Shown piece by piece: positions 36,001 through 42,000 of a stretch of DNA of 64,000 nucleotides. The number at the start of each line of letters is the position of its first letter. Position 1 is the first letter of the stretch. Made by a program: the position numbers. Source of the DNA: Longimicrobiales bacterium (GTDB taxonomy: Bacteria; Gemmatimonadota; Gemmatimonadetes; Longimicrobiales; Gaopeijiaceae); contig CBDDCX010000007.1 in NCBI GenBank assembly GCA_965226375.1, positions 448,001 through 512,000 on the forward strand, in the 5' to 3' direction.

Positions 36001-39000
36001 ACCTGGGGGTACGCTGCTCTACACGGCCCTTCAGGAACTCGAGCAACTCACCTTGGATCGGCGCGCGCTGGCTTACAAGGATCAACTGGCCGCGCGTTAC
36101 GCCGATCTCGTGTACGAGGGTTGGTGGTGGACGCCCGAGCGTGAAGCGATCGATGCGTTCATGAATGTCCTTATGAAGCGGGTGACTGGTGTGGTTCGGC
36201 TCAAGCTCTTCAAGGGCTCTGCGGGTGTGGCCTCACGCTGGAGCCCGATGTCGCTCTACGATGCCGGACTCGCGTCCTTCGGCGAGGACGACACGTACGA
36301 CCACGCCGACGCCGGCGGGTTCATCAAGCTCTTTGGACTTCCTGCCCGAGTTGCGGCAGAGCGCGACGCGGGACTACGTGAGTCCGAGGCGGCCGTCAAC
36401 GAGATTCTCAAGTCGGTGGCACCGCAAACCCCGGTGGGGTGATTGCCAAGGGACCGTCGAAACCTACGGATGTGGGGCCGCGACAAGTATTTTGTCGCGG
36501 CCCCTCCGTGCCTCTACCAGGCCCATGACCGCTGACGCCAAGCCTCCTGCACCCCCGGACGCTCCGCTCTGGAGCGGACGGATCGAGGGGACCATGTCCC
36601 CCGAGATGGTTCCGCTCAACCGCAGCCTGGATGTCGATATCCGTTTGTGGCCCCAGGATATTCGGGGAAGCTGTGCCTGGACCCGGGCCCTGGTGCGCGC
36701 GCGGGTGCTCACCGACGGAGAAGGAGACCTTTTGATCGGGGGCCTGGGCCGGGTGGCTGACCGGCTCGCGAGCCGCGATCACTCGGCGGAGCACGATGAG
36801 GACATTCACTCACTCGTGGAGCGCCTCCTGCACGAAGAGGTGGGGGATGTGGCCGGTAAGCTCCATACTGGCCGATCCCGCAACGATCAGGTCGCGACCG
36901 ACTTCAGACTCTGGGGCATGGAGGCTGCAAAGACTCTCCAAGTGGGACTCCGTGGTATCCAGAGCGCGTTGCTGGATTGGGCCCGAGACTCTCTGGACAT
37001 CATTCTCCCGGGGTACACGCATCTGCAGCAGGGCCAACCGGTCCGGGCGGCTCACTGGGCGCTCTCTCACTTCTGGCCTCTCGAGCGAGACGCGGAGTTG
37101 GTCGGTTCAGCGGGGGCACAGGCTGGGGTACTCCCCCTAGGCTCGGGTGCCATCGCAGGATGTCCGTTCCCGATCGACCGAAACCTCATCCGCGAAGAGC
37201 TGGGATTCGATCGTGTTTCGGAGAACAGCATCGACGCCGTGAGCGATCGCGACTGGGCCTTGGAACTCTCCTTCGCCGGTGCTCGCATCGGGATCCACCT
37301 GTCGCGTTTGGCAGAGGACCTGGTGCTGTTCGGATCCAAGGAGTTCGGGTTCGTGCGTCTGTCCGATGGGTTCAGCACGGGGTCCAGCCTCATGCCCCAG
37401 AAGAGGAACCCGGACGTGGCCGAGCTCGTCCGCGGCAAGGCGGGTCGCCTGGTCGGGAATCTGGTGTCGCTTCTCACGGTCCTGAAGGGATTGCCCACCG
37501 GGTACAACCGAGACCTGCAGGAGGACAAGGAGACGCTTTTCGATTCCGTGGACACACTGGCTGTGGTTCTTCCGGCCATGGCAGGAGCGGTGAGCTCGGC
37601 ACAGTTCCAACCCCAGCGCATCGAAGCGTCGTTGGATACGCAGCTTCTCGCCACCGACCTTGCGGATTACCTGGTCAGAACCGGAGTGCCGTTCAGGAAG
37701 GCCCACGAGGTGATCGCTACCGTGGTGCGTGTCGCGGAAGAGAGGGGCGTGGCGGTGGACAGCCTCGAGCTCGACGACTTCAAGGCCGCACATCCGTCGT
37801 TCGAAGCCGACGTTCTGGACGTCTTTTCCTGGGATCGCTCCGTCGAGGCCCGCACCGCATCAGGCGGCACTGCGCGAGCTGCGGTGCAGGCTCAGATGGA
37901 AATGGCGGCCGGTAAGCTCGAGGTGAGCTAGCCTTCCAAGCCTTCTCACGACATCCGTGCGAACGTTCTTCCAACCGCGGTCACGATCGGTGCAAGGTCC
38001 TCCATCAGAGAGTCGAACTCCTCCAGGGTGAGGGACTGCTCTCCGTCTGAGACAGCCATCTCCGGATCCGGATGGACCTCGATAATGAGCCCGTCGGCTC
38101 CGGCGGCGATGGCCGCCTTCGACAGCGGTGCGACCAGATCCCGCTTGCCCCCCGCGTGGCTCGGATCGGCAATCACGGGAAGGTGCGTCTCCTTCTTGAG
38201 AACCGGTATTGCGGCCAGATCGAAGGTGTTTCGTGTCGCGTCCTCGAACGTTCGGATGCCACGCTCGCAGAGGATGACGTTCGTGTTGCCCTGCTTCATG
38301 ATGTACTCGGCAGCCAGGAGCAGATCCTTGATCCTGGCCGACAGACCTCTCTTGAGCAGGATGGGACGGTGGAGCCGTCCTACCTCGGTGAGCAAGGAGA
38401 AGTTCTGCATGTTGCGGGCCCCGATCTGGAGCACGTCGGCGTACTCGGCCACCAACTCGACCTGCCGAGTATCCATGACCTCCGTGACCACGGGAAGCCC
38501 TGTGGCGGTTCGCACCTCGGCCAGAATCTTGAGTCCTTCCTCACCGAGGCCGTCGAAAGAGTACGGTGAGCTTCGCGGCTTGAACGCTCCACCCCTGAGT
38601 GCCACGGCCCCGGCCGCTTTCACACGGGTAGCCGTCTCGGAGAGCATGTCCATACCCTCTACGGAGCATGGTCCCGCAATGACCGTGAGTGCGTCGCCTC
38701 CGATGGCGTGATCTCCCAGGGGGACTTGTGTAGGCGCCACGCTGAACTGACGGCTGGCCAGCTTGTAGGGCTTCATGACGTTGTGGACCGCCTCGACGCC
38801 CGCGATGGAGAGAAGGGCCTCGTGTTCCAGACCCCCTCGATCTCCGATGCATCCGATCACGGTCCGGACTTCTCCCCGTATCAGATGTGTGCGGAGCCCC
38901 AGGGCCTCCACTCGTTCGCGTATGTGGTCGAGCTCGTCCTCTGTCACGCCATGGCGCGTGATGATGATCATGGGTTTTCTCTCGTGTCCTAGGCGTTACC

Positions 39001-42000
39001 CAACAAAAAAGGCCCCCGACGGAGTCGGGAGCCTGGGAAAAGAGCGCGTTTCGTTCAGCGCGCGCTCTTCAGCCGCCGGCTCCCTCGGGGGGCCGATAAA
39101 AAAAATAAAAGACCTGGACTGCGCGCTGACGATTCATGGGCGTAAGGTGCCCAGGTGCCCCAGTGGAGTCAAGGAGCGGGCTGGTCTCGACCCTGTGCGA
39201 CCGATAGATTTCGCCACGAAAATGGACCCTCGAATCCCTGTTTTGCGACCCTTGGAGGAACTTCCATGTCCACTGCCGCCGCGGCTCCCGATACCTCGGT
39301 GAGCGGTACCGTAGGCCGCCCCGTTCTGGATGACCTCGACCTGCCGCTCGGCAAACGTGTGCGCCTGCGTCGACTCCTCTATGGTCGAGGCCTCAAGAAC
39401 GGGACGCTCCTCATCCTGCCGATCGATCAGGGCCTGGAGCACGGACCCATCGATTTCTTCCCCAACCCTCCGTCTCAGGATCCGGATTTTCAGTGGCGTC
39501 TTGCCTTGGAGGGGAACTACAACGCGGTGGCGTGCCACTACGGCTTGGCTCGCAAGTACATGTCGAAGTATGCCGGTGAGGTGCCCCTCCTCCTCAAGAT
39601 CAACGGCAAGACGACCATTCCGCCGGACGGCGATGCACTGTCTACGATGACGGGCAGCGTCGAAGACGCGGTGGCGTTGGGGGCGGATGCAGTGGGGTAC
39701 ACACTCTACGTGGGGTCTCCTCGGCAAGACGAAGACATTCAGCAGTTCCAGATGGTCCGGGAAGACTGCGGCAAGTACAACATGCCGCTCGTGGTGTGGT
39801 CCTATCCCCGCGGATCGGCCATCGAAGGGAAGGGCGGTCGCGACAGCCTGTATGCGGTGGATTACGCAGCGCGGGTGGCCCTCGAGCTCGGGGCGGACAT
39901 CGTCAAGCTGAACATCCCCAAGCCCGGCCCGAAGGACGGGGAGCAGCCCAAGGACTATGCGGACATCGATTACGACTACGGCGAAGCGGCCAAGCGAGTG
40001 GTCGAGTCCGCCGGCCGCGTCTTGGTGCTCTTCTCCGGTGGCAGCAAGCTCGGTGACGAAGACCTGATGCACAAAGCGCGAACGGCCATGGAGTCGGGAG
40101 CCACGGGCTTGATCTTTGGACGCAACATGTGGCAGCGGCCCTTCGACGAGGCCTTGGCCACCACGGAGCGGGTTCACGAGATGATGAAGGAATTCGGGGC
40201 CTGAGGCCGGCATCCCCCCGCTTGCTCAGGGGTCGAGCGTGACCGACGCCGAGACTCTGAAGCGAGCCGCCGGGCTCGAGGCGGCGGGACTCGTCGAGGC
40301 CGGTATGCGGATCGGTCTGGGTACGGGTTCGACCGTAGCCCACTTCCTTCTCTTTTTGGCCGAACGCATAAACCGAGGGGGACTGCGCAACGTGTTGGGC
40401 GTGCCTACATCTCTCTGGACGGCTCGCGAAGCCAGAGAGTTGGGAATTCCCCTGACGTCGTTGGCCGAGCACCCCTTCCTGGACCTGACCATCGACGGGG
40501 CGGACGAGGTGGACCCGAGCATGAACCTGATCAAGGGGCTCGGCAGTGCTCTCCTACGGGAAAAAATGGTTGCCCAGGCTTCTTCTCGGCTCGCTATCAT
40601 CGTGGACGATGCCAAGGTCGTGGACCGGCTGGGCCAGATATCGCCGGTGCCGGTAGAGGTGGTCCAGTTCGGCTGGGAGGTGCATGACCATTTCCTCGAG
40701 TCGCAGGGCGCGCGACCGGTCATTCGCAGGCGCACGGACGGGCAACCTCTCACCACGGACAACGGGAACTACATCATCGACTGTCACTTCCCTGACGGCA
40801 TCGACGATCCTGAGTCTCTGGACGCCGCCCTGGCATCCAGGGCGGGCATCGTCGAGTCCGGACTCTTTCTGGGCATGGCTACCGAAGTGATCGTGGGTGC
40901 GCAGGACGGTGTGCAGCATTCCTACGCGAAGCAGGAATCGTCATGAGTGTCAAGATCGCTCCTTCGATCTTGTCCTCGGACTTTGGCCGTCTGGCCGAGC
41001 AGGTGGCGGAAGCCGCCGAAGCCGGGGCGGACTGGATTCACGTCGACGTCATGGACGGCCACTTCGTGCCGAACATCACCATCGGGCCTGCGATTACAGC
41101 GGCGGTCAGGGCGGCCACGGATCTTCCGGTCGACGTACACCTGATGATCGAGCAGCCGGAGCGGTATCTGGAGGCCTTCGCCGACGCAGGTGCGGACTAT
41201 CTGGTCGTACACCAGGAGGCCTGCAAGCACCTACACCGTACCGTGGAGCAGATCCGTGAACTCGGTGTTCGTCCGGGTGTGACTCTGAATCCTGCCACAC
41301 CCCTCGAGACCCTGGCCGAGATCCTTCCTTACATCGATCTCGCACTCGTCATGTCGGTCAACCCGGGGTTCGGCGGACAGTCCTATATCCCTTCGAGCAC
41401 AGACAAAATCGCACGTCTCCGACGGATGCTCGACCAGAGCGGTGAGGACGTAGAGCTAGAGGTAGACGGAGGGGTGGACCGCCACACGGCAAGCGCGGCT
41501 GCTGGGGCGGGGGCCACAGTTCTGGTGGCCGGGTCGGCTGTATACGGACATCCTGGAGGAATCGCGGAGGCTATCCAGCTCATTCGAGAATCGACGGAGA
41601 AAACGGCGGACTCTTGATCTGGTCGCTGGTCGGAAGTCGTACCCCTTGCCGGCTCACAGCGAAAAGTCCTGGAATTGCCGGGCCCTAAACGCTAGACTGG
41701 AAAACGATGCACATGGACTCAACGATTATTGATCCTGCCGGCCTTGGTCGCCTCGAGGAATGGGGAGGACCGAAGCTCGTCAAAGAGATGATCAGGCTAT
41801 TCCTCGAGCATGGTCCTGCTCGCATGGACCAGATTCGGATCGTTCTCGAGAGCGACGACCTTGACCAGCCGGAGCGAGGCTCCCACTCACTCAAATCCAG
41901 CGCTGCGAACCTCGGCGCAGGGCGTGTGAGGCGCATCGCCGACGAGATCGAGCTTGCGGCTTCGAACGGGGAGGTCGAGCGTGTTCGTGAGCTGCTTCCC

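Follow-up and report, generated by a model that had tools for sequence, protein, structure and literature searches.

In G000, the genome under study, we identified a short open reading frame, predicted hairpins and a promoter-like pair of hexamers upstream of a DAHP synthase gene. All lie on the minus strand of the window, the whole 64,000-nt stretch of DNA that was analysed, and coordinates are positions in this window unless prefixed C8.

37946..38971 (-): type I-beta DAHP synthase (aroF-like) with N-terminal ferredoxin-like domain (NF006421, TIGR01361, PF18152)
39005..39034 (-): intrinsic terminator, 11-bp stem (regions 3:4, -20.1 kcal/mol) plus U tract, from terminator scan, folding and compensatory changes
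39040..39070 (-): inner hairpin (about -14.6 kcal/mol) 3' of the stop codon, putatively the core of the long antiterminator and a possible pause hairpin
39069..39137 (-): leader ORF of 22 aa, MNRQRAVQVFYFFYRPPEGAGG followed by a stop codon, from translation of the window; no Shine-Dalgarno sequence
39078..39084 (-): region 2 (GGGAGCC), the antiterminator strand, at +12 to +18 counted from the last control codon, pairing with the terminator 5' arm
39088..39095 (-): region 1, the protector strand, immediately following the control codons on their 3' side; predicted partner region 2 (about -12 kcal/mol)
39096..39110 (-): control codons Phe-Tyr-Phe-Phe-Tyr (TTT TAT TTT TTT TAT), read off the window sequence
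39144..39149 (-): predicted -10 hexamer CACCTT, spaced 17 nt from the -35 (consensus in the class, cAnnnT), from position conservation among aligned loci
39167..39172 (-): predicted -35 hexamer TTGACT; TTGAC or TTGCG lies 34-38 nt 5' of the in-frame leader ATG in 47/57 loci

The gene product scores above the NCBIfam cut-offs of NF006421 and TIGR01361, and its ferredoxin-like domain (PF18152) is of the regulatory type. The gene stands alone in its unit in G000, with argH converging on it; among ORFs picked directly behind DAHP synthase genes across loci, 22/37 encode Phe/Tyr-branch enzymes. Recoding of an in-frame TAG in the DAHP synthase of one genus was considered and rejected, because in the one case examined the TAG is a stop codon lying three codons short of the end of the match.

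A preliminary description had placed an uncalled 22-aa leader with a Phe-Tyr-Phe-Phe-Tyr run before this gene and a terminator behind the leader. We found both, the leader at 39137..39069 (-) with its codons at 39110-39096, and a U-tailed terminator at 39034-39005 (-), between leader and gene. The attenuator RNA would be about 130 nt long, 69 nt of it coding. G000 holds 443 short ORFs with a -35-like hexamer 34-38 nt 5' of the ATG, only three of which have at least four aromatic residues in seven, and of these three only the aroF leader has a terminator within 90 nt 3'. The lower threshold of three aromatic residues in seven is weak, being reached by 9/52 terminator-plus-short-ORF sets in G000; 9/57 leaders from the comparison below have only three.

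Across the class, leader and hairpin occur together in 57/81 rows of the orthologue clade as against 1/20 paralogues and 0/7 loci from another class, the placement of orthologues and paralogues resting on a quick tree. The element was seen in 38/58 loci of the same order and 19/23 from other orders, and is missing in 24/81 orthologues, 10 of these in one genus. Earlier counts of 19/22 (aroF) and 7/9 (leuA) used other handles and have no one-for-one match in ours. The proposed extension of such attenuation to the Gemmatimonadota is supported for one class, the only one in which the element was found.

Aromatic residues make up 20% of leader codons, compared with 7.8% of G000 coding codons. Tyr appears in 56/57 leaders, Phe in 41/57 and Trp in 34/57, so that the description of the control codons as Phe/Tyr is accurate for G000 but too narrow for the class. 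That the peptides differ while the aromatic cluster stays was borne out at 57 loci: there is no position-specific conservation, and the cluster may be any mix of F, Y and W. The leaders are also Arg-rich (16%), and their Arg, Gly and Pro codons coincide with the G+C-rich pairing regions; the only nucleotides conserved across leaders are the paired cores.

The leader is probably translated from a leaderless transcript, because the predicted -35/-10 promoter places the transcript start on the leader AUG; by this spacing we infer that +1 is the A of the ATG (39137). A -35-type word 34-38 nt before the in-frame ATG is present in 47/57 loci (null mean 0.76), and the -10 hexamer has A at position 2 in 39/54 and T at position 6 in 42/54 aligned loci. 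A strict sigma-70 scan of the G000 region (38400-39800) flagged no promoter, the predicted -10 included. An SD-like word precedes 1/57 leaders as against 41/57 DAHP synthase starts; the in-frame ATG is missing in 2/57 leaders.

Within 38400-39800 the stem at 39034-39010 plus its U tract is the sole terminator-like site, although shuffles give 0.7, so the scan alone is not significant. Across loci, the terminator stem is 94.1% paired, with double changes at 9/11 pairs, and 56/57 loci have at least four T in nine in the U tail (one has no U tract). In the antiterminator, 90.4% of cells are paired, compared with at most 59.5% for slid partners, and both partners are changed in 43 cells, a number that shuffles (14.8 +/- 2.8) reached in 0/500 cases. 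Antiterminator pairs with a double change number four among these related loci, which is not above shuffles (274/500). A full 7-bp complement to the locus's own terminator core was found in 34/56 loci (permutation mean 12.2, maximum 24 in 20000). The median distance from the last control codon to the antiterminator strand is about 12 nt, which places the strand at the ribosome's edge.

In folding models with an assumed ribosome footprint of 13 nt from the first base of the A-site codon, a stalled ribosome frees region 2, a ribosome further on covers it, and naked RNA forms the 1:2 protector. Median modelled sequestering of the terminator arm is -12.5 kcal/mol for a ribosome at the control codons, -3.9 once it has moved on by five codons and -4.1 at the stop; it is stronger at the control codons in 55/57 loci, and in G000 is -10.2 versus -1.7 kcal/mol. 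Naked RNA from the AUG folds into the terminator state in 53/57 loci. The G000 fold begun at 39180 is a long rod, but 39180 lies 43 nt above the predicted start, and from the AUG the minimum is the terminator state. These models use a fold ending at the terminator loop in place of an equilibrium walk with the full terminator. When the walk includes the complete terminator, the antiterminator wins at some ribosome position in only 9/25 loci, and on these models the switch must therefore be kinetic in most loci. The truncated fold also gives a strong antiterminator for a ribosome upstream of the control codons; specificity would therefore depend on timing.

Based on these observations, we suggest that a classical ribosome-mediated transcription attenuator very likely precedes the aroF-like gene, as had been proposed: every part that sequence can test was found, the antiterminator covaries with the terminator, and the control codons are followed closely, on their 3' side, by the switch. 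The ORF, codons, hairpins, spacing, conservation and compensatory changes can be read directly, and from them we infer the start site, translation, stalling, termination and amino-acid response as follows. RNA polymerase would start at or beside the leader AUG, and a ribosome would load on the leaderless 5' end. A shortage of charged tRNA-Phe or tRNA-Tyr (or tRNA-Trp in relatives with Trp codons) would stall it on the aromatic codons, where it covers region 1 and leaves region 2 free to pair with the emerging terminator 5' arm; the terminator would then not form and DAHP synthase would be transcribed. In many relatives, read-through would also take in chorismate mutase, prephenate dehydratase or dehydrogenase. 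With charged tRNAs plentiful, the ribosome would cross region 2 and reach the stop, helices 1:2 and 3:4 would form, and transcription would end about 35 nt before the gene.

By the criterion of a 12-nt stop-to-stem distance, only 3/51 terminators in G000 lie that close to a stop codon, which is compatible with the coupling of transcription and translation that such a device implies. Few terminators close to stop codons are expected where ribosomes trail the polymerase (PMC4824070).

Other explanations would account for some of these features. The leader and hairpins could be real and yet serve another factor (an RNA-binding protein, Rho or a translational step), with the aromatic codons only partly involved. 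The Streptomyces coelicolor ilvB and leuA leaders, which are similar, did not act as classical attenuators according to the part of PMC1262725 that treats them, and the equilibrium switch in only 9/25 loci would fit such control. We consider it improbable, since the aromatic codons are in frame with start and stop in 57 loci, the antiterminator strand stands at the ribosome's edge, and the DAHP synthase SD lies outside the hairpins. Alternatively, the nascent peptide itself might stall the ribosome together with a free amino acid, metabolite or antibiotic, the same hairpins reading the stall; TnaC and ErmCL are examples of such arrest-peptide control. A short ORF coupled to a switchable terminator and the Arg-rich leaders are in keeping with this, but we judge it very improbable given the lack of position-specific conservation in a cluster of any F/Y/W mix, an enriched residue that tracks the pathway (Leu for leuA, Phe for pheA), and the location of the Arg, Gly and Pro codons in G+C-rich pairing regions.

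A T-box or metabolite riboswitch with an incidental ORF would also show a terminator/antiterminator pair, and in Bacillus a T-box leader precedes aroF; aroF T-box rows are listed in the supplement of PMC2965389. Against this, five loci gave no Rfam match at the gathering score, the eight weak matches in the window region include no leader, T-box or riboswitch family, only paired cores are conserved, and an RNA of about 130 nt is coding for 69; we regard the chance of a riboswitch as minimal. The idea that the ORF arose by chance, next to a small-RNA gene or an ordinary terminator, draws on the ease with which terminator-plus-short-ORF sets reach three aromatic residues in seven (9/52). The leader's presence in 57/81 orthologues versus 1/20 paralogues, the promoter spacing (47/57 against 0.76) and the covariation of terminator and antiterminator leave this idea hardly any probability, and we take it as refuted by the comparative counts unless the loci were mis-called.

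Parallel devices would control leuA (Leu) and chorismate mutase-pheA (Phe), the control residue following the pathway. The Leu-rich leader and terminator earlier noted before leuA proved to be widespread, each preceding 21/23 testable leuA loci, the terminator U-tailed. In G000 the leader lies at C8:1962403 and the terminator at C8:1962534. It has the five CTT codons behind the claim of rare CUU usage, although the bias is better described as CUY (92/102 codons), a preference that could be due in part to pairing with the antiterminator strand, which is rich in purines. The G000 leader indeed lacks an in-frame stop before the terminator. The suspicion of mis-assembly is contradicted by contigs of runs X1 and X4, which match G000 without a difference: the missing stop is a real one-base deletion in this strain, seen in two runs, and it fuses the Leu leader in frame to LeuA. 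The pheA leader, previously listed as unconfirmed, exists as a Phe-type leader before chorismate mutase-pheA in relatives, with only two Phe codons in G000. Inspection by eye showed no Trp leader upstream of trpE, trpB or the gene for the second DAHP synthase of G000; the hisG and ilvD families were not found in this 90% complete genome, and its ilvB-like matches all fall below the cut-off.

Among the closest layouts in print is aroR-aroF of Corynebacterium glutamicum, in which ribosome stalling under Phe limitation raises transcription (Mentz et al. 2013, PMC4046766; Neshat et al. 2014 as summarised in PMC11802643 and PMC11525245). As described in those reports, a short Phe-Tyr-Phe leader precedes a DAHP synthase gene, and the G000 leader also holds F-Y-F; many relatives of G000 carry other aromatic strings. 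aroR, with its three aromatic codons, responds to Phe and not to Tyr, whereas here there are 3-6 in seven, with Tyr commonest and Trp in 34/57. C. glutamicum belongs to another phylum and the enzyme here is type I-beta with a ferredoxin-like domain, and we liken the two by layout. A predicted uORF before aroF in Acholeplasma, uORFC-13-1, likewise has Phe codons and an intrinsic terminator before 3-deoxy-7-phosphoheptulonate synthase; as described (Brewer et al. 2021, PMC8632094), it differs in having a U run for Phe as well as an RBS, and is given for Acholeplasma and environmental sequences only.

The 1:2, 2:3, 3:4 layout and pathway-cognate codons are shared with E. coli trpL and pheL (pheA, pheST) and the enterobacterial leu attenuators, and the last also show a biased choice among synonymous Leu codons, CUA there but CUC/CUU here (in the passages concerned of PMC11802643, PMC1183508). 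Unlike those E. coli attenuators as outlined there, the leaders described here have no Rfam match, mix F/Y/W codons at the entry to a common pathway, and combine a predicted start on the AUG with no SD. Mycobacterial polycysteine leaderless short ORFs also sense charged tRNA for a downstream pathway, but are presented as hiding the SD and hence translational (bioRxiv 10.1101/834739), whereas the intrinsic terminator and covarying antiterminator here point to transcription. The actinobacterial LEU element, with its run of Leu codons upstream of leuA, is characterized in the relevant part of PMC1262725 by a pseudoknot and SD pairing with no classical terminator, whereas both a U-tailed terminator and an antiterminator strand accompany the leuA leaders described here.

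The mechanism is textbook, and the finding extends its range, not its principle. Our literature search, as far as it reaches, found no report of such an attenuator in Gemmatimonadota, an abundant, barely cultured phylum; within that reach, this is the first RNA-level amino-acid regulation described for it. The preliminary statement that no paper was found agrees with this, but for other phyla aroF leaders are in print (Corynebacterium aroR, Acholeplasma). Besides coupled transcription and translation, the attenuator would imply leaderless initiation in Gemmatimonadota. It also adds uncalled small genes to annotate and a promoter consensus for the class, and offers 57 natural variants for asking how a multi-amino-acid attenuator is tuned.

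More tentatively, and with somewhat less than even confidence, these loci may be viewed as a class-wide family of leaderless attenuators. With an AUG start, ribosome loading could itself synchronise ribosome and polymerase, and mixed Tyr/Phe/Trp codons would let a single switch, placed where the shikimate pathway begins, respond to any of the three amino acids. The codon mix would be set gene by gene, with all three residues before aroF, Phe before pheA and four Trp before a DAHP synthase of a third type; a related leaderless version would exist in Acidobacteriota. On the same reading, the one-base deletion in G000 has made the Leu leader an in-frame N-terminal extension of LeuA, and this fusion would be a natural test of what happens when a ribosome runs through the terminator.

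The element 5' of the DAHP synthase (aroF-like) gene is real; it very probably works like a classical ribosome-mediated attenuator, and by every feature that can be tested in sequence it is one. As the preliminary description had proposed, a leader ORF with an FYFFY run and a terminator precede the gene in the genome under study (G000), laid out as follows.

Features of the DAHP synthase locus (positions along the window)
39172-39167 (-): predicted -35 element, TTGACT
39149-39144 (-): predicted -10 element, CACCTT, 17 nt from the -35; +1 would be the A of the leader start
39137-39069 (-): leader ORF, encoding MNRQRAVQVFYFFYRPPEGAGG and a stop
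39110-39096 (-): control codons, FYFFY
39095-39088 (-): region 1 (protector strand), directly 3' of the control codons; predicted to pair with region 2 at -11.9 kcal/mol
39084-39078 (-): region 2 (antiterminator strand); predicted alternative partner is the terminator 5' arm, enclosing an inner hairpin
39034-39010 (-): terminator hairpin of 11 bp, with U tract
38971-37946 (-): DAHP synthase gene, above NCBIfam cut-offs
39266-41617 (+): DhnA-type aldolase (match below the family cut-off), rpiA and rpe, divergent from the DAHP synthase gene

The hairpin begins 34 nt 3' of the leader stop; another 38 nt separate its end from the gene's ATG (38971). The encoded enzyme carries an N-terminal ferredoxin-like domain, which we take to place it in the type I-beta class, and its nearest named homologues (75, 74 and 67%) are labeled Gemmatimonadaceae or Gemmatimonas, which backs the assignment to this phylum. 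Because argH converges on it, the gene is the sole member of its unit in G000. The divergent aldolase, rpiA and rpe presumably lie on routes to erythrose 4-phosphate, a substrate of DAHP synthase; in several relatives the aldolase starts at a matching position. Points of interest are the leaderless start, which we infer, the mixed aromatic codons and a fused leuA leader.

Among 52 predicted terminators in G000 that lie between a short ORF and a following long one, 9 have at least 3 aromatic residues in 7, so this threshold is weak by itself. Of 443 short G000 ORFs that have a correctly spaced -35-like hexamer, 3 hold at least 4 aromatic residues in 7, and only the aroF leader among these is followed by a terminator. 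The comparative test is stronger than these within-genome counts. It covers 108 DAHP synthase loci (30 best matches, 18 new loci and 60 stretches hand-picked from match tables, where other orders contributed roughly one per genus), a non-random sample of non-independent kin. Leader and hairpin were found at 38/58 loci of the same order, 19/23 of other orders in the class, 0/7 of another class and 1/20 loci picked as paralogues. In a quick tree the own-order and other-order loci form one clade of 81 rows, with the element in 57; one genus accounts for 10 of the 24 rows that lack it. Presence and absence require about 12 changes, which, read most simply, would be repeated loss. The element also occurs in 8 of 9 named records labeled Gemmatimonad, kept out of the tally for possible overlap with the survey loci.

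Aromatic residues number 4-6 in 7 in 48/57 leaders, and at least 4 T follow the stem in 56/57 loci. Tyr is present in 56/57 leaders, Phe in 41/57 and Trp in 34/57, with aromatic codons making up 20% of leader codons vs 7.8% of G000 coding codons. Downstream of the 57 genes 37 ORFs were picked; by Pfam they comprise 14 chorismate mutases, 6 prephenate dehydratases, 2 prephenate dehydrogenases, 1 NadA and 14 without a match.

The transcript appears to begin on the leader AUG. A -35-like hexamer stands 34-38 nt 5' of the chosen start in 53/57 loci, starts having been chosen partly by that motif; over all in-frame ATGs the spacing recurs in 47/57 loci, vs a null mean of 0.76 and a maximum of 4 in 1000. 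At the -10 positions of 54 loci, A is found in 39 and T in 42. An SD-like word precedes 1/57 leaders vs 41/57 DAHP synthase starts, and 2/57 leaders have no in-frame ATG. A stop-to-terminator distance of 12 nt serves as a criterion of coupling. Only 3 of 51 G000 terminators lie within that distance of a stop codon. This is compatible with a ribosome trailing polymerase (PMC4824070).

The predicted G000 antiterminator reaches -34.3 kcal/mol overall, -14.6 of it from the inner hairpin, and the terminator -20.1 kcal/mol. In a MAFFT alignment of 57 leader regions, 94.1% of terminator cells are paired, with double changes at 9/11 pairs. For the 7-bp antiterminator the paired share of cells is 90.4%, falling to at most 59.5% when the partner is slid; 43 cells changed on both sides vs 14.8 +/- 2.8 in shuffles (0/500), and the number of doubly changed pairs (4) shows no excess over shuffles. 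Free of the alignment, 34/56 loci hold a full complement to their own terminator core within 32 nt 3' of the control codons (permutations: mean 12.2, maximum 24). Antiterminator pairing begins a median of about 12 nt past the last control codon. With the ribosome footprint masked and the RNA folded only up to the terminator loop, the modeled median gain from sequestering the terminator arm in 57 loci is -12.5 kcal/mol with the ribosome at the control codons, dropping to -3.9 five codons on and -4.1 at the stop. Sequestering is stronger at the control codons by at least 2 kcal in 55/57 loci, and naked RNA starting at the AUG adopts the terminator state in 53/57. When the complete terminator is included, only 9/25 loci have a ribosome position at which the antiterminator prevails; in the fold that ends at the loop, it is strong also when the ribosome stands 5' of the control codons. 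The switch would therefore have to be kinetic and timing-dependent.

Among the closest known likenesses is aroR of C. glutamicum, a Phe-Tyr-Phe leader 5' of aroF that has been shown to answer to Phe but not to Tyr (PMC4046766, PMC11802643, PMC11525245). In Acholeplasma a uORF and a terminator are predicted ahead of aroF (PMC8632094), and in mycobacterial leaderless codon-sensing ORFs control is of translation (10.1101/834739). No Rfam family matches the leader RNA. The literature searched, subscription papers apart, yielded no report of attenuation in Gemmatimonadota, nor do the supplements of PMC2965389, PMC4833913 (external tables apart) and PMC8632094 contain a "Gemmat" entry.

A Leu-rich leader with rare CUU codons had also been described before leuA. 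TIGR00973 matches in 25/61 genomes gave 26 loci, 23 after removal of 3 cut ones; leader and terminator were found in 21/23 (19 by script; loci L031 and L037 by eye) and are absent from L039 and L055. G000 entered the script's count with a wrong frame, its true frame having no stop, and a few leaders have just 3 Leu or are Leu/Ile/Val-rich. The codon bias is for CTC or CTT: 92/102 control Leu codons in 18 relatives, with CTG at 5/102 (G000 coding DNA: CTC/CTT 47%, CTG 37%, CTT 8.7%). CUC and CUU would share tRNA Leu(GAG), present in G000, as reader. Such a choice agrees with selective-charging theory (PMC1183508) and could stem also from pairing with the GAGAGGG strand. In G000 and relatives G001 and G002 the final Leu codons give a modeled sequestering energy of -15 to -20, which weakens to about -7 beyond them. 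These leaders have a 5' UTR, TTGACA lying about 91 nt above the ATG.

The G000 leuA leader does lack an in-frame stop before the terminator, having one base fewer than G001 and G002, so that the frame continues across the terminator and joins that of LeuA, which gains 63 residues. Mis-assembly, suspected earlier, can be set aside: contigs from two studies (sequencing runs X1 and X4, at a depth of about 4; one run possibly the source sample) span the leader with zero differences, and thus the deletion is real in the strain. The additional base is present in a sister sequence found in X1, X4 and X10. Just 5' of leuA (C8:1955809-1961791) sit copies similar to the transposase of the insertion sequence that splits the second DAHP synthase paralogue of G000 (C8:1449311-1452035, -).

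A pheA leader, previously unconfirmed, now emerges in G000 and elsewhere. PF00800 matches in 27/61 genomes gave 29 loci, 10 with leader and terminator 5' of chorismate mutase or prephenate dehydratase. Seven leaders are Phe-rich (L148, by eye; L151, L156, L158, L167, L168, L171), L156 coming from unpublished genome G056; otherwise unpublished genomes enter only into the tallies of DAHP synthase, leuA and pheA loci. Three have two Phe (G000, L160, L163).

The G000 pheA locus (contig C8, outside the window)
C8:1694183-1694016 (-): attenuator candidate (L140), before chorismate mutase and pheA
C8:1694183 (-): leader of 29 aa, MNILFSSSGRFMGSPGKSLPGVRPEVDAV and a stop, two Phe codons; TTGACA at leaderless spacing
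C8:1694067-1694041 (-): terminator

With the ribosome on codons 11-15, modeled sequestering is -13 to -16; at the stop it is -3. This third candidate is likely an attenuator, a weaker case than aroF. Chorismate mutase and the greater part of the leader are gone from the closest relatives, L164 (G002) and L165 (G011); the former keeps a terminator-like remnant alone, the latter promoter and leader start with no terminator.

Several DAHP synthase loci depart from the common arrangement. At L133 (G081:C6), 5' of a divergent DAHP synthase, the leader MAHSPRTAWWWSWRDGSRGRPDCA contains four Trp codons; its spacing is of the leaderless kind, and the U tract of its hairpin is weak. It may be a Trp-specific version. 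Loci L010, L011, L019 and L068 keep a TTGAC hexamer 85-170 nt before the gene and have no aromatic leader; these are loss intermediates, and L019 retains a terminator and a short non-aromatic ORF. Upstream of L018 (G045) the opening codons of the gene recur as a short duplicate and the leader has no ATG; this region is possibly rearranged or decayed. In 4/8 Acidobacteriota-labeled loci (L218, L234, L238, L244; L235 is weaker) DAHP synthase is preceded by a comparable aromatic leader, again with no SD, and by a terminator, with a likely antiterminator strand, GAGTGG, right at the stop codon, a geometry unlike that of the aroF leaders here. The hisG and ilvD families were not found in G000, a 90% complete genome; leuA and the genes after it are present, and a tRNA-Sec gene is predicted.
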